The translations under genes and the position numbers were made by a program. A DNA stretch of 64,000 nt, taken from contig OZ076409.1 in assembly GCA_964187785.1 (NCBI GenBank), positions 25,918,001-25,982,000 of the forward strand, given 5' to 3'. The notes below the pieces were generated by a model. That model did no database searches. It was not told the DNA's origin and saw nothing but the letters and a program-made list of their open reading frames with translations. Of the stretch, positions 14,653-47,350 are shown in pieces; within the stretch, counting starts at the first letter, position 1; each line of letters opens with the position of its first letter. The stretch comes from Amphiscolops sp. MND2022. Lineage: Eukaryota.

Positions 14653-16313
14653 CCCGTACTGAGATCCCATCGCAGTTCATCGATGGCCATCGCAGTCCCA
14701 TGTGGCCCATCGATGGCCATCAATGATCCCTTGATGGGCATCGATGAGGTTTTTCTAACGTTGATCCCATCGATGGGTCATCGATGGACCATTGATGACC
14801 CATCGATGGGAATCAAAATTTTCCATCACAAAAATTCGTTCGACTTGGCCATGTTCAAAATTTCAACAAAACTTTGGCATTTTAAGTTTTTCATTCAGTC
14901 AATTTAAACTTTGTTTGGGATTTCGAGGGTGCCCAAATATTTTATTCAGAAATGAAGTTATACATAGTTATCCATATTATTCACCTTTGTGAAAAACCGG
15001 ATTCTGTTGATTTTCCAAGAAAAAAACCCAAATTTTTTGATACAAAAACGTATTTTCAGAGTCAATTTTCTGCATATTTCAGATATTTTTCTTCTTACAA
15101 GCAGATGGTTTTCTCAGCAATGGAAGCTTGATTCCGTCGCATTTTCATGCGTATAATTGCAATTCTGCCAGGTTTTTTCTGATTTTCCAGATAAAACGTC
15201 CAAATTTTTTGCTACAAAAACGTATTTTCAGAGTCAATTTTCTGCATATTTCAGATAATTTCTTCTTACAAGCAGACGATTTTCTCAGCAATGGAAGCTT
15301 GATTCCGTCGCATTTTCATGCGTATAATTGCAATTCTGCCAGGTTTTTTCTGATTTTCCAGATAAAACGTCCAAATTTTTTGATACAAAAACGTATTTTC
15401 AGAGTCAATTTTCTGCATATTTCAGATATGTTTTCTTTTTACAAGCAGATGGTTTTCTCAGCAATGGAAGCTTGATTCCGTCGCATTTTCATGCGTATAA
15501 TTGCAATTCTGCCAGGTTTTTTCTGATTTTCCAGATAAAACGTCCAAATTTTTTGATCCAAAAACGTATTTTCACAGTCAATTTTCTGCATATTTCAGAT
15601 ATGTTTTCTTCTTACAAGCAGATGGTTTTCTCAGCAATGGAGGCTTGATTCCGTCGCATTTTCATGCGTATAATTGCAATTCTGCCAGGTTTTTTCTGAT
15701 TTTCCAGATAAAACGTCCAAATTTTTTGATCCAAAAACGTATTTTCAGAGTCAATTTTCTGCATATTTCAGATATGTTTTCTTCTTACAAGCAGATGGTT
15801 TTCTCAGCAATGGAGGCTTGATTCCGTCGCATTTTCATGCGTATAATTGCAATTCTGCCAGGTTTTTTCTGATTTTCCAGATAAAACGTCCAAATTTTTT
15901 GATCCAAAAACGTATTTTCAGAGTCAATTTTCTGCATATTTCAGATATGTTTTCTTCTTACAAGCAGATGGTTTTCTCAGCAATGGAAGCTTGATTCCGT
16001 CGCATTTTCATGCGAACAATTGCAATTTTGCCAGGTTTTTCAACTTTTTCAAACAATTCAAGGACAAGGCTCCGATATAAGTGATTTTCAGGCTCGAGAA
16101 AGCTTGCTCAGGCTCAAAAGGAAATGAGAGTAGGTTAAAATTAGATATATTTAACCCAAAAATGCTCCACAACTGCTCCCATGCGCTGGGCGATATTTCA
16201 AATCCCATCGATGGCCATCGATGGTCCATCGATGCCCATCGGAAAAAGTTGCGATGGCCATCGATGGGCTTCGATGGGCCCATCGATGGGATTGAATGGA
16301 GTCTCAGTACGGG
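14653..16313. mobile_element. Non-autonomous TIR DNA transposon, CMC/EnSpm (CACTA)-like
   Basis: 12-bp TIR CCCGTACTGAGA...TCTCAGTACGGG, flanked by AT on both sides (2-bp TSD). Both ends are packed with palindromic CCATCGATGG subterminal repeats. No transposase. Confidence 0.8.
15005..16040. repeat. 173-bp tandem repeat (~6 copies) inside the TIR element
   Basis: Unit landmarks (TTGCAATTCTGCCAGG) recur at 15328, 15501, 15674 and 15847; copies are nearly identical. Confidence 0.97.
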
Positions 16314-17386: not shown

Positions 17387-18688
17387 TTAGTGATTGAGAG
17401 CTGGATCATAGAAGAGATCCAAGAAACATACTGAATAATCCCGTCTGTAACCAGGGAAACAATTAGGATTATTCCAGTGATATTTATACCATCTGCAAAG
17501 TCTGTGTGCAGTGAAGGACCAATGCTCACCAAATTTACTTATCCTAGCTTTGAGCAATTTATCGCGGAGTTCAAATTTGCCATCAATACTTCTCAAAGCG
17601 TCATCCTCTGCGCTTCCGACTAGGCCCACGTGGAGATACCAAGTTTCGTTGTTTGGGGGTACAACTTTAATGACCCAGTTCCTCGAGGCCGTGTAGAAGT
17701 TCCAAATATAGTCAGCCTCAGATAAACTCCGGGGGTAGAAAAGAGAAGCTCCTCTATTCTCACAGTATCGAAGTTGCTCGACAAAGGTCAGTCCCATTTC
17801 TGAATGACGAGCCAGGAAATAACATCTCTGGAATCTGAAGTTTACAAAACCATGGTTGGAGCTGCACTCAATATGTGGCTTTGACATTTCCGCAATTAGA
17901 TCCTTCATGTTATTCCCAATCGTTCGTTTGGACGCAGTGATCGTTTTCAAATCCACTGGTCTGGTTGTTATTCCCAACCCATCTTTACTTGTTCTCAGTC
18001 CACTGGAAAGTTGATATGCAATTTGCAACGATGCTAGAAGTATAGCTACCAGGACCAATAGAAATGTAATCCAGCGGAATATTGATTTTTTGTGCTTCGT
18101 TGCAAAATGATCGGTCTGTTTTTTCACTCCTGGTTGTTTCTGTTTTTTCCCCGCATGTTGGCCGTTAAATTTCATGAGCACAGACAAAAAGCAGACCTTC
18201 AATTGCTCTCGGAATGGTTTCAAGAAAACCAACACCAAAAGGGCGTTGATTTGAGAGTAGAGCATCTGGACTGTGCTTTTATATATAAGTAAATATTTAT
18301 AGGCTAAATAACCCAAAGTTCGATCAGTGTACTTTCTGAGCGGTGTAGGAACAAGAAAGTAAACATAGTGGGGTAGCCACAGAACTATCCAGAAAAAGCA
18401 GCTGGTAATGAAAGCGATTGAGAGATTTCGGTTGCGCTCTTCATCACGGTCACGTGCCATGAGAACTCTACAAACCGAAATATAGAAAAAAGAAGCCAAA
18501 AAAGCCGGGAGGAATAAAAATAAGCAAGATTCAATCCATATTCTTCGAGGTGTGCGTTCATAAAACAACACACAAAATTTGTTAATCCAGTCTGACTCAG
18601 TCTCGAGTTGACTACAATGAACATTAAACTGAGAAAAACTTCTCATGGGGATTAAACACATAAACTTTCCATTGTGCATCCAATTCAA
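17387..18688 (-). CDS. Probable last exon of a host rhodopsin-like GPCR: TM5-TM7, helix 8, an extra TM, C-type lectin-like domain
   Basis: TM5 LFLPAFLASFFY; TM6 FFWIVLWLP (CWxP-like); TM7 YSQINALLV followed by KPFREQL. Then hydrophobic IFRWITFLLVLVAILLASLQI and CTLD-like C...RCYF...LTF.E...YC...GASL..P.S..E..YI...VGL. Candidate splice acceptor AG at 18613-18612. Confidence 0.75.
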   Translation of the reverse strand: MNWMHNGKFMCLIPMRSFSQFNVHCSQLETESDWINKFCVLFYERTPRRIWIESCLFLFLPAFLASFFYISVCRVLMARDRDEERNRNLSIAFITSCFFWIVLWLPHYVYFLVPTPLRKYTDRTLGYLAYKYLLIYKSTVQMLYSQINALLVLVFLKPFREQLKVCFLSVLMKFNGQHAGKKQKQPGVKKQTDHFATKHKKSIFRWITFLLVLVAILLASLQIAYQLSSGLRTSKDGLGITTRPVDLKTITASKRTIGNNMKDLIAEMSKPHIECSSNHGFVNFRFQRCYFLARHSEMGLTFVEQLRYCENRGASLFYPRSLSEADYIWNFYTASRNWVIKVVPPNNETWYLHVGLVGSAEDDALRSIDGKFELRDKLLKARISKFGEHWSFTAHRLCRWYKYHWNNPNCFPGYRRDYSVCFLDLFYDPALNH

Positions 18689-21600
18689 TGTGAAAATACG
18701 TTGTTAACCAAAAAAACAGGCTGTCGTCATAACATGTCACAAGCATTAACTAGCTCGCAAAAGTGAGCGTTGTTTTTTTTAGTACAAATTACACTTTCAT
18801 GCCAAAAGCGGCATCAAATTTTCGTTTTTGAATTACCTTCCAGAAACGTTTTGGATTGGATTTTCTGTATTGCAATTCATCATTTCGTGAAAAAGTTATG
18901 ATGACTGTGAGTTCAACCAATTTTGAGTACTTTTCCTAATCAATGTCAAAATTTTCTAATTTCACTGATCCAAGATCGTGCACTTGCAGGTCTGGGGATC
19001 TTCTAGAAAGTTTATGAAGAAACAAAATTAACTCCGAAAGGAGTATTACGACAAAAAATGCTAGCTAGTTTTTTGCCCCAGCAAAGCTAGAAATTTTCAG
19101 CTGTGATTGAACTTCTCTTAATGAGTTGGTTCGTGACGAAAATATCGTTTGGAAAGCTTTTTGGAGGAAACTCAGGGCTACAACAATGTATACTAAAAAC
19201 GTCGAAGCTGGTACGAGTACAAACCTATTGGGCATGAAATGTTGAAAACAGACAAAAACACTCAAACAGTCAAGAGTGGTAAAAAACACTTTTTCATAAC
19301 TTTTCCAAATTGATCAGATTTCAAAACTAAAAGCATCATCAATCAACTCTTTTCTGTGAAAAACATTTTAATCCAGAGATAAATTTTGTAGCGTCAAGCT
19401 AGCAGCGTATATCTTAGAGCTGGGACAATGCCTAGATTGCCTGACAGGAGACCATGGTATTACTGCAAGCCTAGAAACTAGTTTTTCTCTCAGAAAACGT
19501 CTCCTGGCGGGACTTTCAAACGTCAAGGAACCTTCTCATGTCAGAGCTCCGAGGCGACGTGCCGGCACTCTCAAAGTTCGGACACGCCTCACAAGCCTTT
19601 AAAAAATTTTTTCTGGCGATCCTGGGACTTCCCACAAACTTCCGAGGTCCAAAACAGGTGTTTAGCTAAAAGAATTTTGTATACAAAAAACATTGAAACA
19701 CAGGATCTGATACAAAAACATGAAATAAGGCATCGTTGAGGAAATTACTGCCATAAATTGTGGAATCGAAGCCTCACCGAGACTGTGACTCACGTGATAC
19801 TGCATCCCGGATGAAGCACACACTGCACTTTCTAAGTTTTCTGGCGTAACTAGATGATTTTGGCCATTCTAGACATCTTTTCCCGTTGCTGTTGTCACTT
19901 TCGGGCTCCTCCGAGGTTCCAAGGAGTGTACATTGTTTTTAAAGCCCTGCTATTGACAGGGTCTCTTTTGTTGCTTTTTTGTCTTCCTGAATGAATTCAA
20001 GTACCTGCCAGGTCGGCCAACTTTTTTTGTGCGGTACTTCGAAGTTTTGGAAAAACTTCGGGAAGATTTCGGTGACAAGGCTGCTGGACGTTACATCCTC
20101 CCCGCGCCGATGTTTGTTGTCCTGGGCAAACGAGAGTGTACGTTCACGTCTTTGGTTGCCAGCACCCTGTGATATATTTTCATCAACCTAGCACTTCGGG
20201 AACCCAAAACAAATTTGCTCCACAAATGAAGACGAAATTTTTTGCCAGCCATGCAAGCTTTCTTGGATTTCACATAAACAATGGCTTGTAGCACTGAAAA
20301 GCATAGCAATTTTAGATAGCTAGCATTGATTTGAAAGTGTTTTCAAACATTTGATCTCGCACTAAAACTTCTAGCACTTTTCTTTACGGTATCTGTATAA
20401 AATGCACGCACCACAACAAAGTTGGCTTCAACCTGAGGCTCAGCTGATAATAAAGAAATTATGAAACAAACGATAGCACTTGAAAGCGGTAAACTAACAG
20501 CTGTGATCTTGATAAAGTGTCGTATTGCATGGCAGACAGGAATTTCGGTATGAATAGCACCAATTGCTAAGTAAATCTCATGGAGCATCAAAAACATCAC
20601 AAAAAGAGATGAGCCATTCACTCTATTGTGTTGAAACTGAAGGCTCAGTTCAAAGAATTGTCTAGGTAGTGTAAGCACCAGTGAATAGGTGAGAGATGGT
20701 AGTAAACTGTTTCTTCAGATGATTAAGAAGTCCTTAGCGATGATAGACGAGGATCAACAGAAGTTAAAATCCAGGCTTTTTAGGTCATGAGAACAGTCTT
20801 TGGCATTGCGAACCAAGAACAGAGCAATTTTTTGATTTTCAAAAACATGGTCGATGACCGAGCAGTTTTCAAAGCTTCCAAGCTCCTGGTGTTTTGTCAT
20901 GCTCAGTGGTGATTTCTCTCGAGAGGGCACAAGTACTCTTCCAAGGCCAACCTCTTGTCCCGACTTCTCACATGCAAATTGTTCACGCAACTTCAATAAC
21001 GCGAACCAATGGTGTGAATGGAGCGACGAACATTAGGTTTTAAGGAGCATGCTTGGCTACAGACGGTAAATTGTCGGAAACACTTTTTTGTCACTCGTGC
21101 TGACTTATTTCTGGAGAGCGACGATGGTGGTTATTCGAGATGCACCTGAAAATGAGAAGTAAAGAGGAATAGATGATTTTGGTTGTGGGAGGAAGAAAGT
21201 TTTATTAGATGAGTAGCCAAGGAGTGGAAAAGGGTAAGCGTAAAATAAATTTGTTTAAGGGCGAGGGAAAAGTGAATAGTAAATGGGGAGAAGAGGGGAT
21301 AGTAAGAAGAAAGGGAGCGAAGAAGAAGAGAAGGAAAAGGGAAGACAGCTAGCTGCTTGATTGGACCTCTGCCGGTCAAGCAAATCTGCGAGACCACGTG
21401 GCGCCCGCATGTTTGCCTGTAACTAATCATAGCTCTGTTCGTAATTCATTCCATAGCGGCAATTAATATAATATTACTCGAGGAATCCAGCGGTAACGGT
21501 GTTCCATTCAACAAAATTTTCCTTCTACTTCGCGGCCGTTGTTTAATGGATGCCACCGTTACATATTCCTTCTTTCGTCCAACCCTTCTCTGAACCTTAG

Positions 21601-23412
21601 CTCTGTTCACTGTTTAGCACGTGTTCTTTGGATCAAAAACTGCACGGTATAACAAACACTTTTCTTAAAGTATTAGTCTGAACACGACATCTCTTTCAGC
21701 TCCTTTCAGCTACTACTGACCAAGCTGTCTGATGAAAATGCTTCACGAAAAAACGTCAAACAATGAATCACAATTTTTGTCAACCCCTCACAAATATTTG
21801 GAGCATTGCATCATGGTCTGACAAACGTTCGAACAAAACTATAAGACCGTGGATGACTTTTTACGGGAGGCAAAAATATTGTCGCCACAAGTTTCGTGGT
21901 CAGAATTTTTGTCGTATGAAACTTTGTCGTTTCAGCGAAACCAGAAAATTCGATGTCAAAACATTCATCGCACTGATTCAAATGAACAGCGTTCAAGATG
22001 CCATTTCAAACATTCAATTGTTTAATTATTATAGCGTAGGGCGCTTTTATTACATCGGGCATCTTGTTTTCACTTCTCCTAGCGCCTTTTCCTGCAGCTC
22101 TGAAGGTTTTTTGCATCATAAACTTTTGTTTTTCAAAAGGGAAGTTTGCATACGTTCTGTAAAATTCCGGTAAACTGATATACACTGGCCCCTTTAAGGT
22201 TTCGTGAAAATTTTTTTGTGACCAGTTTTTGAGGTAATGAATTTGAAATTGGCCGTTTTAAGCAATGTACTTTGTCTAACTTCACTTCATCTTCAAGTTC
22301 TCGACTTATCAGACGTAAAAGAACATAATTGTCTATTGCGATTGAGATCTTTGTTTCATGAAACTCGAAACGTTAGTCTCCATTCGACCCGAGTAGATGT
22401 TTGCATATATATTTAGAATCTCATGTCACAGCCTGCTCACAGATGGGGTACACACTGCCAACACGGAATGCACATAAGAGCGTCAGGGGTCGGCAATGGG
22501 ACACTTAAGACTATTTAGGTTAGTAAAAGTTTCACTTACAACAGATAAATATAGTGTAAGTTCGAGTTTCCTAGAACAACAACCAGTTGACGGAAGGTTG
22601 ACGTGAAATGATGTCCCTCGGCAACATAAAATTTTCCAGCGCACTTCCGTTACTTGATTTCAGTCCTAATATAACTACATTTCCGGTACCCCTTCGTAGA
22701 AATTTCTATAGCGATCTAAAAATAGAAACAGAAATTCAAATTTGGAATGAGAAAATTGTCCACCTGTTTTTCCAACTTAGAAAGAGACATTCAAAACAAC
22801 AGCTCATGCGCATTTTGACGAAAAGCGTACGTCCTAAAACAACCAACTAAACAGTTCTCGAAATGTACACCAAGTTGAACTTGAAACGATTGTTGAACTT
22901 ACTGAAATTACAAGTAAGTAATCTAACCAAATATTTACAACGCAACAGGAGATTTTACGGCAGAACTAATTCTCAGAATCGTTAGCGTAACGAGCCAATA
23001 GCTTCGCAGCTAGAACGTCACATTTGAGCTCAAGCCAAAAGGAGTGATTTCTTTGAGGTCAATAAAATGAGACTTGCAATAATTCCTGATCTTGACGTAA
23101 TGCCTCTGTCAGCGCCTGGTCAACTAAAGCCAATCATAATACACACATCAACAGTACGTTCAATCCTGAAGGTTGGTTCAGTACGCGAGCTACCTTTTCC
23201 CAATAGGAGTGATTTTTTTCCTAAAAAGTAATGTCGTTCGTGAAGAATGTAGTGTTGTTTATTGCCTGCTTGAGCAAAGCTGTATTGTAAGATAGGCACA
23301 GGAAGTTACCTCCAATTAGCCGAATATATCCAAACAAAAGACATGTGATTCCCATCTCTAGCTAAAGTGTGAAACCAAATGCAAAAAACGCGTTTACTAT
23401 GAGATTCCTTGT

Positions 23413-23781
23413 TTTTAGTCGGCGTTTTCGAAGAAAATCCCGAATCTTACAGTGGCTAGTTTTTTTTCGTCGGTTCAACGCGTAACGTCCACTTTTTGTG
23501 CATTATAATGCACATTTACTAACTTTTACCATATGTACTTAATACTTCATTTTCAACGCATCCAAAGCGTCTAACATGAGAAAAAGCGTCCCCCCTTTTA
23601 CATTTTCGACACTATGCGACTTACCGGAAACTTCGAAAAAAAATTTCAAAAAAAATTCGGAATTTTTTCTCTCAATTTTTAGTTTTTTGAGAGCTTTTGT
23701 TGTCTCCAGTTGTAGAAAAAGTGGTTTTCGAGTCTTTTTGAGCCTTAGATATGGCGCCGACTTGGGCCGTTCCCGGCTTGT
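23413..23781 (-). mobile_element. Short dispersed repeat, HINE/DINE-1-like, copy 2
   Basis: Plus strand ends TTTTGAGCCTTAGATATGGCGCCGACTTGGGCCGTTCCCGGCTTGTT like 14595-14640, and begins with the same TTTTAGT-hairpin-CTTACAGTGG module as 14250. Confidence 0.55.
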
Positions 23782-24692
23782 TCCATATGAGTCTTTCAAG
23801 AAAATATTCATCTTTTAACCTTTGGATTATGCGAATGCGTGACGTCAGGTCGACCTCAACTCCATTTGGATGAAAATGGCGATATAGTTTGCAGTCAATG
23901 ACTTTTCCCATCTTAAATTCACTGCTAACACAACATGTGAGTTATGAATCTCTATACTTTTACGTCGTTGTTTGGAAATGTAAATTGAGGTTGTTTAGAG
24001 ATCTGTTTAAAGGTTGGAACTAAATTGTTTCATGGCTGAAAAGTCTGTAATTATAATTAATTTCTTTCTCAAGCACCTTCTTTTTGCAACTCTCAAGCGT
24101 TGCGGTTGAAGAGTTTTTGCATCATAAAAACTTTGGATTTCAAAACGGAACTTCGCATAAGTTCTGTATCTTCCGGCAAACTGATATCCAGTGATCCCTT
24201 TCAATTTGCTTGAAAGTTTTGTACCCACTCCTTTCCTTTATAAATGACAATTTCTTTCCGTTTCAATTACGTCGCCTACTTTTGATTGTCATCCTTTTTT
24301 TTACAAACTTCCCGAATTTCCCGTTGAAAATTGCGAGTTTTCTATTCAAAATCCGAAGGGACAATTCTACCGCCGTTTCAAAGTGAAACGAAAATGATTT
24401 CAATAAATGCGACGCATAGTTGACGCAACCAACTAGGAATCTTGATATCTGACATTTAGATGCCGGGCTGAATTGATACGCATCACATAGTGTTTAGGTG
24501 AACAAATCCGGTTTTCACGATAGCTAGGAATTTTCAGTTGAGGAACTAATAATGCAAGGAAAGTATATACTTGTTCCTTTTGAGAAATCACCTCAGTTAA
24601 TAGTTATCATTGTTACATTGTTTGCACTGACACTAACTCGGGTTTCCTTTGACAAATTCAAAACCTCCCAGCATCTTTGTTTCATCTGAAAA

Positions 24693-24998
24693 ATGACAAC
24701 TAGATTTCAGAAAAAGAAAGCTGTAGTGCAACTTTGGCGAGTTCGAAACGTCCAACTGAAGTTTCTGGTCCTAGTAAATCTCGTAAACATTAACTAAGAA
24801 TACTAGGAAACTTACCAGATAAAGACCAACCAGAAAGAAATGCTAAAACTGATAGCTCCAAATGCAAAGACATCGTCAGCCCTCAACACTCAGAAGATTC
24901 TGATTCTGAAGCTGAAAACACTTTCATTGTTCCAACAGCAACTCCGATAAGATCTAAAGCGAATACTCAAAGCAACACTCCGTTAGTAAGTCGTAACA
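24693..24998 (+). mobile_element. Decayed LTR (U5) remnant carrying a gag N-terminus; third family of the A/C type; 5' limit unresolved
   Basis: ATG ACA ACT AGA TTT CAG AAA AAG AAA (MTTRFQKKKA, cf. MPTTRKQKKA of C). The broken frame ends ...TPLVSRN+A at LTR-like CGTAACA, the same codon phase as the LTR/PBS junctions of A and C. Confidence 0.5.
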
Positions 24999-25733
24999 GT
25001 AAATTCTCCTATATTACCATTTGGTTAATATCGTTCGACTAGTGTCAAGTCATTACACAATGCTTCAATAACGGCCTCATGTTCTAATGCCATAAAGAGC
25101 GTCAGAGACTTCTGAAATAATCTGAATCGTTTTTGCAATTGAAAGCGTTCATTCGACTTTCTTTACTCAAATCTGGTCCTTTTAGAGAAGTCACAACCGG
25201 TCGACCCGGAGTTCTTATTGCCCTCTCGACAATGGAATGGATTCGAAATCTTAAGCCTCAAAGAAATCTTCCGTTAGCTATTTTGACGGTTTCTTCACCT
25301 ATTTCTTAGGGTTACTCAACATACTCACCATATTATGATCACACTATAATCGAGGTAATTTCATGATCATGGTCATACCAAGACCTTACCACGGCGGCCG
25401 AGCTTCATAATATGATCATCATGTTTTATAGTATCAGCATATTAAGATTCATCATGTTTCACAGTATGATCACAGAATGAGAAACGATGAATTTTACATA
25501 CAAAAATTAGGATATAGGGCATGATAACCTAATGTACGCAAAGTTGACAAATTGGTCACCGAGGCCTTATGCTGTATTTTTAGGAAGCGTTCAGTGAGAT
25601 ACATACAAGCATTTTCACTGATAATTACGGTAAATTTGTTATTTGGTTTTGAAAAATTTAACAAATATGGCATCGACACTTCAGTGGTCCCTTGTAAGAA
25701 AATAAAACCCGTCAGAAACATTTTTACGTCAAT

Positions 25734-26561
25734 TTAATTTAATTTTTGATTGAACTTTTCTTCAATATGCTGTCGTGTCAGCTCAAAACTAAAGATCGCC
25801 TCACGATTTTCTTCGGCGAGAGAAATATAATCATAATAATAACTATGATAATTCCCCTCGTATCCAAAATAATCGTAGAAATAATAATAGTCGTAATCGT
25901 AGTCGAAACCATAATCGCCTTTTCTAGCTTTATAAACGAGATCAGAAAAGTAATCGTAGACATCTAGCCACAAAGTATTCACAAGTATTGAGCAGACAGG
26001 AATGAGAACAACGAAGCAGGCAATAGTTATCAGCCATTTTTTCAGGAGAATATCCGAAGACCTCGTAGGATGACATACAAGGACATATCGCACGAAAGCT
26101 GTGGCGGCAATGCACCAACCGGTCGAATATTCATTCAGCATCAAACGGAAGAAGTTAATGATACATTTAACTTGATTTGAACCATCGACCATCGCAAATT
26201 TGATCCTTACGGTTTGCAAATTGAACCGGTAGACAAGACTTTCCGTTTCAGAAGCAAGATCCCACCAAGATCGGAGATCGTAGTAAACTAGAATATCAAA
26301 CACGCAGTTGGCAACGCCGGGCCCAACAATATCCACAATAGCTTGGAAGTACAGAGAAAATAACTTCAGATCTCGAAACTCATCTTCACGCAGAAGGAAA
26401 TAGACCAAGAACACGTTTAGGATGATGCAAAGGACGCTCAACACGGTCCCTGTGGTTGTTTGCAAAACAACAGCATCCAGGGTGTTTTCCATGCTGTCAA
26501 AATAGTAGTTAAAAACATAGTAATCGTCGTTGGCAGTAATCCGATATTCCCGATATTCCAT
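25734..26561 (-). CDS. Probable first coding exon of the same GPCR: N-terminus, TM1-TM4, Tyr/Asp-rich loop
   Basis: TM1 LSVLCIILNVFLVYFLL; TM2 LYFQAIVDI; TM3 EYSTGWCIAATAFVRYVLVCHP (DRY-like VRY, then CHP); TM4 WLITIACFVVLIP. Complements the 17387-18688 ORF; the splice donor is not resolved. Confidence 0.75.
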   Translation of the reverse strand: MEYREYRITANDDYYVFNYYFDSMENTLDAVVLQTTTGTVLSVLCIILNVFLVYFLLREDEFRDLKLFSLYFQAIVDIVGPGVANCVFDILVYYDLRSWWDLASETESLVYRFNLQTVRIKFAMVDGSNQVKCIINFFRLMLNEYSTGWCIAATAFVRYVLVCHPTRSSDILLKKWLITIACFVVLIPVCSILVNTLWLDVYDYFSDLVYKARKGDYGFDYDYDYYYFYDYFGYEGNYHSYYYDYISLAEENREAIFSFELTRQHIEEKFNQKLN

Positions 26562-32532: not shown

Positions 32533-33135
32533 TTATTGGGGATTGTCGTAAGCACGAGGGTTCGTGCTTGTGAATCCGTCTTTGAGGCGGTCATTGGCCT
32601 GCTTACTCTTAGAATTATTCCTAGGTTCTAAGTTTTGCAGCACTTCGGAATATCCTTCTGGTCTCTCGGCCGGAACGTTCCATCTCTCTTTGGTCAACTG
32701 TCCAGACCCGGCCATAACTGCATTTTGGATTTGAGGCAAAATTTGACTACTGATCGCTTCATTTATTGCCCTTTGAATCTGAACACTGACGCTGTTCATC
32801 ATTTCATCCATCTCTCGAGATATACGGGAATTTAACTCGCTCGACAGTCTATTGATCTCAACACTTGAACTCTCCCTGATTGAATTTTGGCCTAATTCGG
32901 TATTTGGGCTAGGTCCATTATTTCCTGGGTTTGGGAACTCATTCTCATTCTCATCTTCAAGTTCATCTTCAAATAAGCTTTCTGGCCTACCGGCCTGATT
33001 ACTATTCATACTTTCACTTCTCTCATTTCTATCAAAGTGGTTTCCTCCGAGCATAATATCCAAATTCTCAATGTCTGATAGCATTTCTGCTTCTCTAGAT
33101 TTCCTTGCTTTCTTCTGTTTCCTAGTAGTAGGCAT
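32533..33135 (-). CDS. LTR-encoded copy of the Gag N-terminus reading out into flanking DNA (200 aa)
   Basis: Same as the first 197 aa of the 45629-47350 Gag; ends NPQ* in the TSD/flank. Expression is unknown. Confidence 0.5.
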   Translation of the reverse strand: MPTTRKQKKARKSREAEMLSDIENLDIMLGGNHFDRNERSESMNSNQAGRPESLFEDELEDENENEFPNPGNNGPSPNTELGQNSIRESSSVEINRLSSELNSRISREMDEMMNSVSVQIQRAINEAISSQILPQIQNAVMAGSGQLTKERWNVPAERPEGYSEVLQNLEPRNNSKSKQANDRLKDGFTSTNPRAYDNPQ

Positions 33136-33283: not shown

Positions 33284-34307
33284 CCTGAGGCATGACACTC
33301 ACATTTTCCACATATTATTGAAATGTTTACATATTCTAAAGGATCGTGAGATTTTACGAGGATTGAAAAATAGCTATTGCATCAAAGTGATTCAGGAATT
33401 TAGGGTCGGAAGAATTCCTGAGGAATGCACTCAATTACATACTCATGATGGCTTCAAAGTACGGGGGACGGTTTAGTCCGCATTCCCGTAACAATTAACA
33501 TCAAGGCAAATACATGTTCAGACACTTCAAAGTAATATTTGTGTCAACAGGTATGTGAGATATCTAAGGCACGTGCCTGCACACGCAGGCTAATTCATCA
33601 GGTAGCAACTCTAATTATATGCACTAATAAAAGGTGAGCGCGGCCCAATTCGGCCATTTGACAAAGGTACCAGCCAATTAAAGTGACCGGTTTAGCCCGC
33701 TGGACTAGTATTTAGAGTTTTATGACTGGTGGTCACAACTACATCAATTGGGTTTAAATAGCCCCATTAGCGCCTTCTAAATACAAATATAATCCTACAT
33801 GACTTTAAATAACATGCATACTCAAATTAAACAATTACATAAGCTAATAGTTGGAATGGCCTAATCCGGCCATTTACCTTTGGTTCGCTTACAAAATAAA
33901 GTATAGCGTCAAGTGGCCGTATACGGCCAAACAAATATGACAGTATAATGCACAGCAGGATAGAGCGTTCTGATTGGCTAATGAAATGAGCTCAAGTGAC
34001 GTCTCCGGAATTGGAGTTTTGTTCACTTGAACTCGTTTCCTTTAAGCTTTACACTTGCCTTTATTACATTACGTCACTGCTAAACAATTCATCATATAAA
34101 CATAATCATCACCGTTTGAATTCTAACACGGGTATTAATCAGACTAATATTCAATCCGAATACATAATGAATGTAATAAAACAACAGTGAGTTTTACTGA
34201 AAGTTTTGAATAATTCTCCTAAAATGTGGGTAGAGTGCCTGGTACGGCTTCTTGTTCGTTAGTAGTCGTTGTGATTCGTGTCCCATCGCAAGCGGCAGCC
34301 TGCGACA
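32544..34307 (-). repeat. 3' LTR of element C (1764 bp)
   Basis: Matches 46759-48498 except for about six substitutions seen by eye and (TA)19 vs (TA)7. Confidence 0.97.
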
Positions 34308-35010
34308 CTGCGGGTGCTAGGAAAAGAAGACTTCCGGCATGTAGACCATTTTCGTAGGCTTCTCTCCTCAAGTCCGTTATGTATGCCGGTTCATTGCGCG
34401 GTGTTGATCTACTCATGTACCAATTCACCTTCTCTTGTTTAATTTCGTCCACTGATCTTCCACAGACCATACATCCACGGCCCAACTGTTTACTAAGATC
34501 CGAATACGGCTGTACTTGTTGGATGTGGTAAGATGCGTGGAAGCTGGTGCTAACTGGCTGTTCCATGAGCTCGTCTTGGGACGGCCCTCTCTCATGTTCG
34601 GGCGGAGACAACGGCGATTCCAATACTGGTAGAATTGTGTTGCAAAGTTCTATCCGGGTTCTTTCTGCCTTTCTCATCGGCACATACAGGAGTTTCTCGT
34701 CAAAGTGTTTGAATCCCAATTTCGGAGTCGAAGGTGGCCACATTTGAAGATTACTCGGTCCAGCTGCTGATTCTGTAGCCTGCTCCTCCACAGTCATCTT
34801 GCGACCTGCGATTAAAATTGGGCTTGACTTGACTTCCCTCTCGATTCTCTCTATGATAGCCTCGGTGTCCGTGGACCAATCGGAATCCCATGAGGTAGAT
34901 GAGGTGCCTTCCTCCTCGTCACTCGATAGGTAGATGACCGAATTTACGGAGGCTTCTGAGTCCGATTCTTCTAAGTCGAAAAGCTTTCTTGCTAAGTTAA
35001 ATTTAGCCAT
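34219..35010 (-). CDS. Accessory ORF of element C (263 aa from first ATG), unknown function; C-terminus encoded in the LTR
   Basis: Uninterrupted ORF; acidic VIYLSSDEEE motif; HASYH...CMVC; the last 89 nt lie inside the 3' LTR. No signal peptide/TM pattern of env. Confidence 0.7.
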   Translation of the reverse strand: MAKFNLARKLFDLEESDSEASVNSVIYLSSDEEEGTSSTSWDSDWSTDTEAIIERIEREVKSSPILIAGRKMTVEEQATESAAGPSNLQMWPPSTPKLGFKHFDEKLLYVPMRKAERTRIELCNTILPVLESPLSPPEHERGPSQDELMEQPVSTSFHASYHIQQVQPYSDLSKQLGRGCMVCGRSVDEIKQEKVNWYMSRSTPRNEPAYITDLRREAYENGLHAGSLLFLAPAVSQAAACDGTRITTTTNEQEAVPGTLPTF

Positions 35011-35896
35011 TATTGTCTTTTTTTGCAATTTTGTTGATTCGCAGAGCGACTTGTTGCTTGCAGGGTTCAAAGTTGAATAAGTTTGTCAAAATTTTCTTCA
35101 GGCCAATTCAGGCTATTTTCCCGGAGTCCCATTTCGGCGGGAGAGACCATGGCCAATCGCCCTGATCCGTCGTAAACTTTCTAGAATGGAATTTCTCAGC
35201 GGCTTATTTATCCTTTGAAATTCGGAATGAAACCCCCCTTTCTCACTCTCTCAAGTGAGTATGCGAAGAGGTGTTAAGTTGACAACAACAAATAATTCCA
35301 CTTCAAGTGGGTAATCAACATCAAGCTTGATAGCAATTAACGGCACTTGTCGGATGAAACTCACTGAAATGGCTTCAGCCAATCGAATTTGAGTTTCGAT
35401 AAATTTGAAAATGAATAATAAAGATGGCAGAAAATAATAATTTTGAATAACTAAAATGGCGAAAATCTAACTAAGGTAACTAGGAAAACTGAACAAAACG
35501 GCAACATAAATTGGGGTAAACGGCCATAATCGGCCACTAATTGTAACAAGGTTGTAAATAGCGAGATACGTCCTGTACATTTCATTGGCAGACTCCGTGT
35601 ACAGATTTAAATGTGTAGATAATCAAATAATATTAGTCTGGTAAATCTTCAACCACGAACTCCAACTTTCCAATTCCTTTATTCATCTTTAATTCCATTC
35701 GAATTCTATTTATATATCAATTGTTTCTCTTACTGGGAATCTCCTAGCTGGTATTCGTCTTCCCTTTGTCTCTAACTCTGCTGTCGATCCCCTCTCTGCA
35801 GCACTAGGGCCCCTAACTTCGGTCCACCCACGGCCATTTCCCTCAGCTTCTTTCGCCCGACGAGAGCATTTACTGAACGAGTAACATTACGGCAAC

Positions 35897-38800
35897 ATGT
35901 CTTCCAATCCAGGTTGGTTTGATTTTCTCTTTCTTTCAAACAAGCTTAGCTTGATCAAGGCTAAACATTGTTCACATGACGCTCCCTGTTTCCATCAGTC
36001 AGACACGTGAAAATACGTTTCATTCAATTTTCAATACACTTCCGGAAGATTTCTAACGCGGCAAAATGGACTCTTTCCAAGGAAGCATACCGCTAAATTT
36101 TATCTCTTTCTATTTAGATAATCAGACTTCTGAGATTGAGATTACATCAAACCCTGCAGGATTACCACAGACAATTCCCAGTGAAAGTGTTACCCAGAAC
36201 GCGGCAGATATTGCCAGGACCGTAACTTCCCCTCAGAGCGTCGAAAGTGAAGTGGACGTCAATGCTTATGCGGAGGCCAAAATGCATGAGATGGAGATTG
36301 AGCAAGCTCAAACGCAGCAACAACCACTCACTGGTAGTTCCAACACGGCGACGTCTGTTGCTGCGACTTCCGCTGGAGCCCAAACTCTTGATTGCATCGT
36401 CCCAGTGCGGTCTAGTACCCCAATACCAGTAGACGCAGCTGGTACTTCCCAAGCTAGCCTGAACACATTAGAATCAGGCCTAAAAGTCATGGATCGTCCT
36501 TTGAGCCAATTGCCTGAACTTATCCCAGCAACCCAAATGGAAGCCACTGCTACATTGTTAGGGAGAGCACCAGATGACGAAGATTGTGAATCCTCCGTGT
36601 ATGAGGTCCCCGTGCTACCCACACATGAACACAAAGTCCGGTTTCTGACCGACTTGAGCGAAGCTGAGAAAACTGCTGGAGAGACGAGTAGCGTTGGTTG
36701 TCCTTCCCTTTACGGGGGTATCCCCGGGTTGTCCGAATCTGGAGATGAAACTAACGACCCCGCTGATACAACTGTCCTCAGTCAACACCAGTCCAACCCA
36801 GTTACATCTACTTCCCGAAGTCATGACTTCCAACCTCCTGAACTCTCTGGAAGAGCACGCGCCATATTGAAAACTTACTTTGAAGAGACAAATGCCTTCA
36901 GGTTCCCGCCGGGACAAACAGCAGTTGTCTTCACAGAGTCCCAAGTATACCACTTGTTGCGAGTCTTGACTGATGAAACGCTCCGGATGTCCCACTCTGC
37001 GATGGAACGAATGATTTTGGATGCCGTCCGGGGCAGTCCTACAATTGTCCCGCCTCGCACTGGCCATTTCAAGTCAAGGACACGAGCACAGACTCCTTTC
37101 AGGCATGTCGATAGTGAATCAAGTGATACTGAGACCGGCGATCTACCAGTTATCGATTCCGAAGGACAAGCTACTACGGACCATGGTGAGTTGGGCGACT
37201 CCTCCTCGTTTGGGGAGAGTGACAGTGCTGGTGAGATGGCCTTGATTTCAGCCACATTCAAGACTCCTATCAGAACAACTGATGTTCAGCCTACTTCATC
37301 CACAGTACTGCCTGGAATCACACAGCCAGGTAGTCAGGAGACTGACCAAAGCAGCCAAGATATCACCCTGTCAGAGGTGAAGGAACAGACGCTACAAACC
37401 AGGGCAAAGATGCAAAGTAGGAAGACTTCAAAGGCCAAAAGATTGCCTCAACGAGGGGTCCCGATGCGAGAGGAGTTCTTTGCCAAAATTGGGTGGACTC
37501 GGTCTTTTATCTCCGGTCCAGCAGATCCGATCCACAATCCCTACATGGTTTGGTGCCATATTTGCAAGAAGAATTTCTCGATCAGGAGCAAGGGAACAAT
37601 GGAGATAGTCAGGCATCATCGGACTGAGAAACACCTCCGAAGGGACCAGAGATGGAGGTACGAACACTTAAAGAGTACTGACCCAATTACGCTCAAGACC
37701 CACCATCGCGTCCGAGGCAGAAATGGGAAAATCCTGAGTAAAATAGAACTGGCCAAAGAGCTCCCCAAATTTATACACATGGAGTTGGTTGACATTGGAG
37801 AGCGTTTTCCTTTTTACGAGGATTTCGTCCGGGGCAGGACTGCTCCCTTAGCTACGCCTGAGTCCCGTGCAAGAACTCAGCTGGTCTTGGTGGCTGACTT
37901 CATCCAGAGCCATGGTGATATTACTGTCCTCCGCAACATGTGGGCCAAAATCAGTTCAGTTACTGACCATCAAGCTTCTCTCTGTGACTTCGATTGGGGA
38001 GAAGAGAGAATGACCGTAAGTATTATTTGCTTCCTCTCTCTTCAGGTCATCTCTTTTCCTAAGTTGTTATATTTTGGTTCGTGTCATTTTTAGGCGGTAT
38101 TCCAACACTTCTTCAACTGTGCCATGAGTGACGTTGCTGACCAGATCTCCTCCCTTCAATGCTTTGCTTTGGAATTCGAGGACCAGGGGCCTAACCGGTT
38201 CATGTCTGTGAAGTTCTGGAAAGGCCAAAGCTTGTGCAGAGTCGTTGTTTGTCGTAGCAGGCTACCTTCCACTGACCTCACTGGAGAATTTGGATCCCTG
38301 GCACGGCTACTATCCGCAGTCTCGACAAAGGCAGACGTGGTGGCCTGCTCTGGATGTCCGGCTGACCTGATCCGGACCATAGACGAGGTCTCCACTTCGG
38401 CGCGAGCTGTCCAAAGTTGTTTCAGATTCTGCCAGCTCAACTTGTCCAAATTGATGCACAAAAAGAACTACAGTGTATTTGGCCACATAGACTTCTTTTC
38501 AGTTTTTCGCGGTTTGATCATCTCTTTGGGCGGATCGACTGATGAGGACTGGGTACGACGCAGTCCCGAACTAGCCAAGGTAAGTGGTCTCTCGCATCTT
38601 ATCGTAGCATAACTGTGTATGCATTATGGTTTTAAACAGCATTTTGCATTTGCATCGTGTTTCCTTTCAGGCTATTTCCAAGAGTGACATAGATCTCCCC
38701 ACATTGCCTGCCTTGTGCCAAGAGCTCATGGACGAGTGGAAGTTTGTGGTTTCATTCCTTACACTACATTCCCCCAAACAGCAGGGCCAAGGAGTCAGGA

Positions 38801-40188
38801 CTAGAGTAAGTAACTCAGCTTGGGTTCCGCCCTTCTCCCTTAGGTGGGAGACGTTATAATTTCGTCGTGAATTTTGTTGCAGGTTCAGAGCTTTGAGTGG
38901 TCGCTCATCTGCGATGAGTTCTTCCTGGTGAAGCTGGAATTCTTCTATCACCTTATTAGTGATTGTTAGTTTATTACGCTAGGCTAGGGTTTTCCCTTTA
39001 GACTAATACGTCTAAGTTTTCTGCGTTTTAGACAACTCCAGTTTCTCTTCTAACTTACAGAGGCGACGAGATTCTTCCTTCTATCTTTGTGGGGAAGTTG
39101 CCCGTTATGTCTACAGACTCTGCTTTAGATGTTATACTGCGGACACCATCCCTCTTGAGAGCTCGTGGTTTCTACTCCTAAATTTCCAAACTAGTGGGAG
39201 AACGTTTCTGTCAGCTGACGAATTCCTCACCCGACTGAATATGAAAAACAAAGTAGCCAGGGCCAGTAAGCAAAAGTCAGAGGGTGTTCATTCTGGGAAG
39301 AAAACTGACAGGTCTGCAGTACAGAAGACCGCTGAGTCCATCAAGAATGATTTCGTCCAGGATTGTCAAAACTTCCTCCAATTCTTGATAGGGGGCGTTC
39401 TTCATCAGGCTGGTCTCTGCTCAAATCTTGTTCGGGGTCTTGCCGCTTTCGACCCGTATATCATGGTGAAAAGGCCCACCGAAGTAGCGCTTCGTCACTT
39501 TGACCTGTTATACCGGACTTTTCAGCTCAGGTCTTGGGTCAGTTCGGCAAATGAGTCTGCCTGCCGCGATGAGTACGTGGAGCTGTTGGACCACCTCAAA
39601 GCTTCTTCTCCGCTTTCGTTTGATGTCAGTCAAGGTTCACCGGACCTTATTGATTTCTTCATCAATCTCGACTTTATGCAAGAACATAGCAGACTGTTGT
39701 ATCTGTTCAAGTTAAGTTGTTTGTGCGTTACGTCTGAGAGCCCTCAATACCCGATGGTAACCATTGGAACTATCAGCACATCAGGCTATCTGAACAGACT
39801 CACAGATGTGGTCTTGCCTGCCCAGAGTTATCTGTCTGGTGTTCCGGACTCCACTGCCTTTTGCACTAGTGACTCTAGTTTGGCCAAATTCTCTGTCCTC
39901 TCTGCCTCTTTCGGTGAAACTGCCTCGTCTAGTTCATACGACCCCTGGACTTTCGTTGACGAGTTTGGCAGGAACAAAATTTACAAGACTCTTCTTGCAT
40001 CATATCGTTCTGCTCTTTCCGGATTAGGCGAAGGGAGCCTTGATGAGACAGCATCCTCCAGCGTTGGAGATATGCCTGCTGTGGTCCCGCCCAGCAGCCG
40101 TAAACGGAGACGTATGGAGAAGAGTAGATCTTGTTCGAGAGCCTCATCCGTCGACAAAGAGTCTCCCGTTGGTTGTTCTAAGGACTAA
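35897..40188 (+). CDS. Six-exon antisense gene of element C, predicted 1257 aa; BED-type zinc finger plus hAT-transposase-like body
   Basis: Exons 35897-35912, 36118-38015, 38094-38579, 38671-38805, 38883-38964, 39032-40188. All introns are GT-AG with compatible phases (1,0,0,0,1); total 3774 nt with no internal stop. Finger VWCHICKKNFSIRSKGTMEIVRHHRTEKH at ~37548-37633. Confidence 0.85.
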
Positions 40189-45628: not shown

Positions 45629-47350
45629 TTAGTTTTTTGACTCATCATTAGGATATGAGGATTGGGAGCCCGATGATGTCGGTTTGGTCTGGGGTTTCTG
45701 AGCCTTTGGATTGGGCTTATTCTCAGTTGAGTCCTCAGGTCTAGTGCGTTTGGGTTTAAGATGTGCACCAGCACCTTGCCAACATCGTTCTTCCGGGTGG
45801 TTCTTTTTGCCACAAGTGCCACACTCCGGGTATGTTTTCTTCTGAGTTGACTTGCCTTGTTGAGCATCTTTCTCTTTTTTCTTTTTCAGTTTTTCGCAGT
45901 CTTTGACCATGTGGCCTTTTTCCTTGCAATAATTGCAAGTAATGTCTGACATTTGCCCAGTGGACAGAGGAGTTTTAGATTTTGTACTCGAGGAGGTCAT
46001 TGTGGCCATTGGTAGGTCATCTGATTCCTCAAGGGCGTTGAGTTCCAACTCTCTCTCCAAATGAGCAACAATTTCATCATATGAGCCATTTTCTAGTCTG
46101 GCCATGTTGACAGACCGCTTCAACTTAGGTGGCAATTTTGCATAGAGCAAGCTGTCAATCATTCTCTGTGCATGATCACCAAACGCCTTCTCGGCTCCCT
46201 GGTTTAATTCTTCGAGAAAATCAGGCAGCTTCATCGTATTGGGATCGAAGACTAGGTGGTGCCATTTATGTTTGGCAGTCGCCTGTGACTCGGGTTTGAC
46301 GTATTTCCGTCTAAAGATGACTAGTACGTCCTCTAGAGTTTGTCGGTTGCTTGAGCTGATATTTCTGAACGTCTGAAGAGCATTCTTCCTCAATAAAGAG
46401 TGGAAGTGATTGATCTTCATTTGCTCAGTCATTTCTGGCTGCATCTTGATCATAGTGTGAAATAGGTCTTCGAACAGCTCGAATTTCTCACTTTTGCCGT
46501 CGAATGTCATGGTATTTGAGTTGACTGGGCGTATGGTGAGTTGTTGGGCTGTTGGTCTATTTTGCATTGTGGTCAATACGTCTGCCAGTCGGGTGATGGG
46601 GTCGGAGTCAGCAGCCTTAGCGATTCTCTCTTGTGCTGGGATCGTCGTGTCGAGCAGGGGAAGGTCATCATTTGATCTGTTGAGATGACTGGTGGATGGT
46701 ATTCGTCCCGTGAGAAACTCAGGAACTTCGATTGGAGATTCGTTTTCTCCTGTCACCATGTCGTAAGCACGAGGGTTCGTGCTTGTGAATCCGTCTTTCA
46801 GGCGGTCATTGGCCTGCTTACTCTTAGAATTATTCCTAGGTTCTAAGTTTTGCAGCACTTCGGAATATCCTTCTGGTCTCTCGGCCGGAACGTTCCATCT
46901 CTCTTTGGTCAACTGTCCAGACCCGGCCATAACTGCATTTTGGATTTGAGGCAAAATTTGACTACTGATCGCTTCATTTATTGCCCTTTGAATCTGAACA
47001 CTGACGCTGTTCATCATTTCATCCATCTCTCGAGATATACGGGAATTTAACTCGCTCGACAGTCTATTGATCTCAACACTTGAACTCTCCCTGATTGAAT
47101 TTTGGCCTAATTCGGTATTTGGGCTAGGTCCATTATTTCCTGGGTTTGGGAACTCATTCTCATTCTCATCTTCAAGTTCATCTTCAAATAAGCTTTCTGG
47201 CCTACCGGCCTGATTACTATTCATACTTTCACTTCTCTCATTTCTATCAAAGTGGTTTCCTCCGAGCATAATATCCAAATTCTCAATGTCTGATAGCATT
47301 TCTGCTTCTCTAGATTTCCTTGCTTTCTTCTGTTTCCTAGTAGTAGGCAT
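45629..47350 (-). CDS. gag: gag of element C (573 aa), intact, starting inside the 5' LTR
   Basis: Two CCHC knuckles CNYCKEKGHMVKDC and CGTCGKKNHPEERC; capsid-like TFDGKSEKFELFEDLF region; the ATG is 592 nt inside the LTR. Confidence 0.93.
   Translation of the reverse strand: MPTTRKQKKARKSREAEMLSDIENLDIMLGGNHFDRNERSESMNSNQAGRPESLFEDELEDENENEFPNPGNNGPSPNTELGQNSIRESSSVEINRLSSELNSRISREMDEMMNSVSVQIQRAINEAISSQILPQIQNAVMAGSGQLTKERWNVPAERPEGYSEVLQNLEPRNNSKSKQANDRLKDGFTSTNPRAYDMVTGENESPIEVPEFLTGRIPSTSHLNRSNDDLPLLDTTIPAQERIAKAADSDPITRLADVLTTMQNRPTAQQLTIRPVNSNTMTFDGKSEKFELFEDLFHTMIKMQPEMTEQMKINHFHSLLRKNALQTFRNISSSNRQTLEDVLVIFRRKYVKPESQATAKHKWHHLVFDPNTMKLPDFLEELNQGAEKAFGDHAQRMIDSLLYAKLPPKLKRSVNMARLENGSYDEIVAHLERELELNALEESDDLPMATMTSSSTKSKTPLSTGQMSDITCNYCKEKGHMVKDCEKLKKKKEKDAQQGKSTQKKTYPECGTCGKKNHPEERCWQGAGAHLKPKRTRPEDSTENKPNPKAQKPQTKPTSSGSQSSYPNDESKN
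45632..45638 (-). other. Putative -1 ribosomal frameshift heptamer A AAA AAC
   Basis: Immediately precedes the gag stop TAA; the pol frame is -1 relative to gag. Confidence 0.7.
46747..46758 (-). promoter_or_regulatory. Primer-binding site TGGTGACAGGAG of element C
   Basis: Abuts the 5' LTR end ...ACGACA; shared with element A. Confidence 0.8.

Follow-up and report, generated by a model that had tools for sequence, protein, structure and literature searches.

The 64,000-nucleotide stretch of contig OZ076409.1 from Amphiscolops sp. MND2022 analysed here (in the following, the window) carries on its minus strand, between positions 17387 and 26561, two open reading frames (ORFs) that together describe a G protein-coupled receptor (GPCR). 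According to structure models, the fold of a class A (rhodopsin-like) receptor with its seven transmembrane (TM) helices and helix 8 is followed in the same chain by a predicted eighth TM helix, a stalk and a C-terminal C-type lectin-like domain (CTLD). We are highly confident that this architecture is real and that it is not limited to the window locus.

The evidence that carries this finding comes above all from relatives of the gene. A word-based search first returned seven proteins, P0005 among them, a full phmmer search (E<=0.001) gave 187 clusters at 50% identity, with the best 150 listed, and a profile search returned 18 proteins that overlapped in part with the earlier set. From the 178 proteins of the family set, 13 allelic near-copies were removed and the remaining 165 were scanned with region profiles derived from 18 members. 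These sequences are prokaryote-style gene calls on eukaryotic contigs, and fragments are therefore to be expected among them. An earlier note on this DNA had suggested a search for paralogs of the same architecture, and such paralogs exist: 14 of the 165 non-allelic proteins contain TM1-2, TM3-4, TM5-7 with helix 8 and the C-terminal domain in one ORF (with a complete CTLD in 10), and in 65 of the 165 TM7/helix 8 is joined in frame to the CTLD. The single-ORF members establish the fusion independently of any splicing assumption. The pairwise distances of TM5-7 and of the CTLD are correlated (Mantel rho 0.53, 0 of 5000 permutations, 31 members) and 16 of the 31 members have the same nearest neighbour for both regions, which indicates that receptor part and CTLD travel together. 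Chance adjacency and read-through of two genes are ruled out by the 14 single-ORF paralogs and this co-divergence.

The window copy is divided between ORF1 and ORF2. ORF1 (P0002, 25734-26561, minus strand) comprises 275 amino acids from an ATG and covers a short N-terminus, TM1-TM4 and the start of the second extracellular loop (ECL2), with a stop codon at its end. ORF2 (P0001, 17387-18703, minus strand), 438 amino acids from stop to stop, extends in one frame from the ECL2 cysteine through the CTLD. On the same strand, it consists of the ECL2 cysteine and TM5-TM7 (18221-18574, placed by alignment), helix 8 beginning with K-P-F-R (18173-18220, likewise aligned, and a separate helix in the model of paralog P0023), a lysine-rich linker predicted to be cytoplasmic from the linker composition of the family (18083-18172), the predicted eighth TM helix with its N-side in and its C-side out (18008-18082, 19-residue Kyte-Doolittle mean 2.47), a stalk of predicted helical structure and of a length conserved in the family (17882-18007) and a long-form CTLD with a hypervariable long loop, assigned by fold searches (17408-17881). 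Both ORFs match consecutive parts of the 699-residue single ORF of paralog P0005, namely residues 73-248 (ORF1, E 9e-37) and 284-662 (ORF2, E 2e-69).

These observations bear out the description in the earlier note, which had placed TM1-4 and TM5-7 in two ORFs on the same strand, in the right order and about 7 kb apart, and had traced one unbroken ORF from TM7/helix 8 over a basic linker and a hydrophobic helix to a stalk and a CTLD-like domain; ORF2 is stop-free throughout, and the sugar-binding motifs EPN/QPD and WND are absent from the window copy, as had been claimed. In favour of the proposed receptor with eight TM helices and a lectin fold at its C-terminus are the predicted structures, the fold searches, the charge bias around the eighth helix, the cysteines and most of all the 14 single-ORF paralogs; its outside-facing topology is a prediction. 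That the two ORFs are exons of one gene, as the note assumed, is likely. In the comparison with the Pfam families 7tm_1 and Lectin_C, all scores stayed below the curated cut-offs. For 7tm_1, ORF2 reached E 0.0032 and ORF1 E 0.0086 (17.4 and 16 bits, cut-off 30.5), and for Lectin_C, with 16.3 bits against a cut-off of 22.6, E was 0.068 with ORF2 and 0.017 with the domain alone. Pfam is thus weak when taken alone, and the identities of the receptor part and the lectin part are settled by fold searches.

A model of the CTLD was built with AlphaFold2 on a 65-row alignment (predicted local distance difference test, pLDDT, 84.4; predicted TM-score, pTM, 0.82). Used as a Foldseek query, it gave 169 matches at E<=0.001, and the best 40 of these 169 are all CTLDs, including 3l9j_C, which we take to be one. 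An independent search of 48,161 chains returned CTLDs as well, with a best Z of 10.1 (root mean square deviation, rmsd, 3.4; 119 residues aligned), many CTLDs tied and 40 chains at Z>=8, so that a structural match for the C-terminus has been found. The C-terminal domain, as modelled, is therefore of the CTLD fold. Its six cysteines, four of the core and two of the long form, lie at P0001 residues 280, 294, 314, 403, 415 and 426 and are kept in 63/64, 64/64, 65/65, 50/55, 50/53 and 53/56 of the rows that have a residue there. An invariant glycine is found in the motif L-H-x-G, which, going by the fold match, we presume to be the counterpart of the WIGL-type beta2 strand. All core strands have a constant length. 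The long loop, which is the ligand-binding face of CTLDs, varies between 5 and 47 residues and contains about 19% F+Y+W (57 rows). EPN is present in one of the 65 CTLD rows, QPD and WND in none, and the calcium site 2 sugar motifs (EPN or QPD plus WND) of a calcium-dependent carbohydrate-recognition domain are accordingly lacking. Between P0003 and P0011, two alleles of ORF2, all five differences fall in the stalk or the CTLD. In the window allele pair, the CTLD shows an excess of differences (4/163 versus 0/164); such an excess was not seen across the other allele pairs.

For the receptor part, the full-length paralog P0023 was modelled with a pLDDT of 84.6 and a pTM of 0.67, the latter leaving the placing of its parts relative to each other uncertain. 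Residues 1-339 superimpose on class A structures with Z 26.0 (rmsd 3.3, 285 residues aligned). Helix 8 is formed by residues 324-344, and behind it come a long helix at 347-406 and then the CTLD; both window halves align to P0023. The N-terminal part is thus, in the model, a class A receptor fold with helix 8. A prediction of the complex between the seven-helix (7TM) part of P0023 and its TM8-stalk-CTLD part, run without an alignment, scored 0.00, which speaks neither for nor against such a complex. The 7tm_1 cut-off was passed by 5 of 30 scanned paralogs. An alignment of 29 rows, including five plain 7TM relatives, shows P5.50 in 29/29, the ECL2 cysteine in 28/29 and Y5.58 in 26/29; R3.50 is kept in 26 of the 28 rows over which positions 3.49 and 3.50 were counted. 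The basic motif of the third intracellular loop (ICL3) and TM6 occurs in 43 of 46 members, NPxxY is kept in one subclade and ERY in two full-length members. The window halves contain N1.50, D2.50, the C3.25-ECL2 cysteine pair, P5.50, Y5.58 and WxP; N1.50, D2.50 and C3.25 are read in ORF1, together with F-V-R-Y at the DRY position. V-R-Y stands for DRY and N-A-L-L-V for NPxxY, with Arg3.50 and the helix-8 spacing kept. Since R3.50, P5.50, Y5.58 and the basic motif are retained and DRY and NPxxY are degenerate, the coupling machinery of the family is partly conserved and partly altered.

The return of the chain to the outside is predicted from the region behind helix 8. In all 65 members with this join, a hydrophobic 19-residue segment (hydropathy >=1.5; >=1.6 in 63) lies between helix 8 and the CTLD, 36-57 residues before the latter (stalk median 46). 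Lysine and arginine within 15 residues of this helix are more numerous on its N-side in 55 members, equal in eight and fewer in two, counts which are not independent as the rows are related; this corresponds to the positive-inside pattern of a helix with its N-side in and its C-side out. The linkers contain 16% K and 6.6% R, and the module behind helix 8 has, with this predicted topology, the type II layout of cytoplasmic tail, N-in TM helix, stalk and CTLD. An eighth helix acting as a signal peptide or as an amphipathic helix is disfavoured. A luminal CTLD is in keeping with the conserved cysteines and with an N-x-S/T site that 40 of the 65 rows have at the same position before helix alpha1. 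Tyr/Asp-rich tracts of the paralogs are located in the N-terminus, ECL2, the third extracellular loop (ECL3) and the CTLD region, 12 of them after TM8 and none in the linker; the latter zero follows a by-eye reassignment of two P0044 runs to ECL3 and is not significant, the linker being too short. Altogether, both ends of the receptor appear to lie outside the cell in this model-based topology, with an N-terminus before TM1 of about 35 residues in the window copy and under about 100 in full-length paralogs. Two findings weigh against an external CTLD: sequons are not enriched overall after TM8 (1.15 per 100 residues, the linker having 1.47), and in the window copy the conserved N-x-S/T site is missing, with another sequon present at residue 352.

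The long Tyr/Asp tracts themselves occupy differing extracellular segments. The window copy has one after TM4 that is likely coding and part of ECL2 (25824-25964, minus strand), akin to tracts in the paralogs, and others are found in P0041, P0060, P0118, P0170, P0171, P0046 and P0057. They resemble the tyrosine-sulfation tracts of chemokine receptors.

In a tree of TM5-7 (89 rows, 143 columns), a 97/80 branch has on one side every one of the 51 rows that carry TM8 or a CTLD, together with 17 tail-less rows, several of which are nearly identical to CTLD-bearing ones. The other side holds 21 plain short-tailed receptors, among them L001, the only locus obtained in a metagenome scan of 49 stretches, which at 522-1292 encodes a plain short-tailed 7TM relative that reads E-R-F in place of DRY and lacks TM8 and CTLD. 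Searches of the Atlas gave nothing but 7TM clusters (0.76-0.77) and Lectin_C clusters (0.85), and these serve as leads only. One fusion followed by birth-and-death expansion would be the simplest reading of these sequences, and the fusion would have joined a type II lectin-like receptor to the end of a plain 7TM gene. A single origin is called into question by the fact that the groups of the 97/80 split were defined after a quick tree had been seen, and by a longer alignment (42 rows, 325 columns) in which the split reached only 61/84 and two divergent members share a long branch; all trees are unrooted. In one subfamily, homology of the N-terminal halves P0175, P0176 and P0177 ends at a common point in ICL3, which is also where the C-terminal halves P0030 and P0172 start, on contigs that match in length. 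This second shared break is probably an intron.

The 7-kb gap inside ECL2 that separates the two window ORFs (18704-25733) is probably an intron, although a disabling insertion has to be considered. Among 28 paralogs, P0009 is the best match of either half and P0005 and P0036 are within the top four, and neither receptor remnants nor extra exons were found in the gap and its flanks (best E 0.26), from which it follows that ORF1 and ORF2 are halves of one gene. The gap ends show no terminal repeats and no convincing target-site duplication, and no Rfam match was obtained in the gap. Nearly all in-phase donor/acceptor pairs (43/44) give an open product of 595-686 amino acids, and ranking these 43 products by profile score (479-504 bits) was not decisive. 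The break in ECL2 recurs on two contigs for ORF1 and on three for ORF2, and paralog P0004 (55% identical) likewise starts in TM5. Altogether 50 of 164 family ORFs start in ECL2/TM5, compared with 1-12 per 25 positions elsewhere outside true N-termini, in a search whose query itself began in ECL2. ORF1 is stop-free for 75 codons past TM4 (chance P ~0.017), so the donor probably lies beyond the Tyr/Asp tract. Past the stop of ORF1, its frame is open for 77 more codons (25503-25733, minus strand, P ~0.015), with no Pfam match and no family match (probability 0.2%). The gap also contains a degenerate direct repeat of 115 bp (78%) at 22101-22214 and 24107-24220, 2006 bp apart. On a third contig, P0010 has an N-terminus from another frame, as if frameshifted in TM5.

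If the gap were instead an insertion, the family would be real and the window copy dead, yielding no 8-TM product; this is compatible with the other alternatives discussed below, and we consider it possible but less probable than not. It is in agreement with the stop codon at the end of ORF1, the density of LTR (long terminal repeat) elements in the window and a tree rich in truncated near-copies. Moreover, the phases of the best-looking donor (25804, phase 1) and the best-looking acceptor (18628, phase 0) do not agree, and ECL2 is unbroken in the nearest full-length paralogs P0005, P0006, P0009 and P0036, two findings which speak against an intron. Against a dead copy stand the two halves, stop-free and with their core residues kept, the recurrence of the break on several contigs, the ORF starts of P0004 and of so many other members, the open in-phase splice pairs, the shared first rank of P0009 and the gap ends without terminal repeats.

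How the family works can be proposed from its layout. A built-in co-receptor, in which the external CTLD likely captures a ligand and signals through its own 7TM bundle to a G protein, has in our estimation an even chance of being correct. TM8 would bring the chain back outside after helix 8 and the basic linker, and the stalk would keep the CTLD close to the outer face of the receptor. The variable CTLD loop would then likely bind a large ligand, glycan or protein, independently of calcium, and the 7TM bundle, the sole signalling part present, would be switched on by ligand binding or by clustering. Signalling is assigned to this part because no linker contains an immunoreceptor tyrosine-based inhibitory motif (ITIM; 0/65). 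According to PMC10377782, the motif-less CTLDs SPL-1/2 bind sugars without calcium. The role in the sensing of glycans, microbes or symbionts that the earlier note proposed is plausible. That the family forms a lineage-specific lectin-GPCR repertoire of dozens to more than 100 pattern-recognition receptors, whose variable loops would read microbial or algal surfaces and signal via G proteins, is a more speculative extension which we regard as doubtful. Several findings weigh against the co-receptor: an acidic residue at 3.49 is present in only 5 of 28 rows, most having a hydrophobic one, Tyr7.53 is retained in only 20 of 60 parsed members (Phe in 24), the window copy has neither Pro7.50 nor Tyr7.53, none of 30 scanned paralogs reached the Lectin_C cut-off (best 19.0 bits versus 22.6) and 53 of the 165 relatives have TM7/helix 8 without a CTLD.

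The erosion at 3.49 and 7.53 would also suit a receptor of the same architecture that is uncoupled from G proteins, its CTLD binding cargo and its 7TM part acting as an anchor for arrestin or endocytosis, for which atypical chemokine receptors are a model. Linkers with an average of 5.3 Ser/Thr are in line with this idea, which nevertheless appears unlikely to us, as conservation is strong at R3.50, P5.50, Y5.58 and in the basic ICL3/TM6 motif, NPxxY and ERY persist in the members mentioned above and YxxPhi is present in only 6 of 65 linkers. Rather unlikely, too, is a purely regulatory TM8-stalk-CTLD module, which would dimerise the receptor or cap the 7TM pocket as a tethered ligand while the 7TM part senses a peptide or another small ligand molecule. 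The stalk is often the site of dimerisation in type II CTLD receptors, and the fixed stalk length (36-57), a cysteine in the outer part of TM8 or in the stalk of 34 of the 65 members and the absence of sugar motifs are what such a module would lead one to expect; the long loop, however, varies in length and sequence around a fixed core, which is a better fit to a diversified binding surface. In a last alternative, the part behind TM7 would be separated, either spliced off or with the eighth helix cleaved as an internal signal, leaving a 7TM receptor and a lectin-like protein. Besides the 53 relatives lacking a CTLD, there are 26 CTLD pieces (of 165) without TM5-7, and a snail gene model of the same order looks like two merged genes. 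We consider separation very improbable, since 65 relatives have an in-frame join that needs no intron, a furin motif occurs in only one of 65 stalks, the CTLD-only pieces begin in the linker or later and resemble fragments of prokaryote-style gene calls, and receptor part and CTLD co-diverge.

With class A GPCRs (7tm_1), the family shares the 7TM fold with helix 8 as well as N1.50, D2.50, the C3.25-ECL2 pair, R3.50, P5.50, Y5.58 and WxP, the best matches being tied among opioid, somatostatin, orexin and melatonin receptors. Unlike these, it has an extra helix and a folded domain after helix 8, a C-terminus predicted to be outside and degenerate DRY/NPxxY motifs, and no ligand can be inferred, as identity to solved receptors is only 11-18%. 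The same basic tail, TM helix, stalk and long-form six-cysteine CTLD are known from type II CTLD receptors (CD94/NKG2, NKR-P1, CLEC-2, dectin-1, Mincle, DC-SIGN), at 10-20% identity. In the family, however, this module sits behind a 7TM part instead of forming a stand-alone single-pass protein, its linkers are without ITIM and its CTLDs without EPN/QPD/WND. The calcium-independent invertebrate lectins SPL-1/SPL-2 rank at the top of both fold searches, level with many other CTLDs, and, according to PMC10377782, have no functional EPN/QPD. They differ by an identity of 16-18% and by the lack of a receptor fusion, and the likeness in fold shows no common ligand.

Adhesion/LGR-type GPCRs likewise combine recognition and 7TM parts within a single chain. 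Their ectodomains are N-terminal, according to PMC6033456, whereas the window copy has its short N-terminus and the domain at the C-terminus; in the table seen in PMC8687355, one Lectin_C entry is paired with 7tm_2. A separate domain fused after the 7TM part is also found in GPCR-bigrams (GPCR-PIPK, -INPP, -AC, -PDE, -TKL), GPCR-TK and 7TM-RGS. As described in PMC6033456 and PMC12716839, the fusion domains of GPCR-bigrams and GPCR-kinases are intracellular. In contrast to these catalytic or regulatory domains on the inside, the family has an extra TM helix and then a disulfide-type recognition fold.

In the full-text literature searched, from which subscription papers were mostly beyond reach, the layout of eight TM helices and a C-terminal CTLD is not described, and the family is apparently an undescribed, large and expanded class A variant. 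The accessible part of PMC10075465 mentions a CLECT plus rhodopsin combination in one clause, as one model among 63 lectin genes. This model, Biomphalaria pfeifferi BP25773 (S8 Table there), has rhodopsin at 15-314 and CLECT at 493-655 and hence the same order. In the first 400 of its 665 residues, which were available, TM7 stops before NPxxY and a Met-led stretch resembling a signal peptide comes next, so that BP25773 is probably a merged (chimeric) gene model; it is not among the homologs found for the window family. A motif search of the readable supplements of PMC12849515 and PMC6188537 revealed no family member. The main text of PMC12849515, as far as accessible, does not contain the term GPCR, and uncharacterised receptors were left out of PMC6188537 according to the part seen.

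The remainder of the window consists mostly of LTR retrotransposon sequence in an AT-rich context, and this LTR content points to a repeat-rich animal genome. The retrotransposons are reminiscent of acoel genomes, and a setting rich in AT and LTR elements agrees with PMC9911081 but is not diagnostic. A tandem array of six 173-bp units (96% match) is located at 15008-16040, 1.3 kb downstream of the gene. Two long ORFs without a Pfam match (36057-40188, plus strand; 34219-35085, minus strand), one of them with a Cys/His pattern like that of a BED zinc finger, lie antisense between two near-identical copies of a gypsy-type gag 5' end (32533-33135 and 45629-47350) and might represent a nested element or extra cargo. 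For the gag protein at 45629-47350 (minus strand), relatives at E<=1e-10 number at least 2,656, and the best 120 show 77-97% identity; on this sequence evidence it belongs to a very large, recently active LTR family.

To our knowledge, class A receptors have been regarded as seven helices with a cytoplasmic tail, and additional domains, where known, sit outside the cell at the N-terminus or inside it at the C-terminus. The family would represent a third layout, in which both ends are predicted to be outside and a type II lectin-like receptor has been built onto the tail and multiplied. It provides a natural test of signalling without a free C-terminal tail and of the gating of a 7TM bundle by a tethered recognition domain. 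As Lectin_C stayed under its cut-off in all of the scanned paralogs, the family would have escaped inventories of lectins and GPCRs in the host group. Acoels are reported in PMC12849515 to lack major conserved immune signalling pathways. If the proposed function is true and the host is an acoel, these receptors may therefore provide a missing recognition-and-signalling route in acoels and a handle on the recognition of their photosymbionts.

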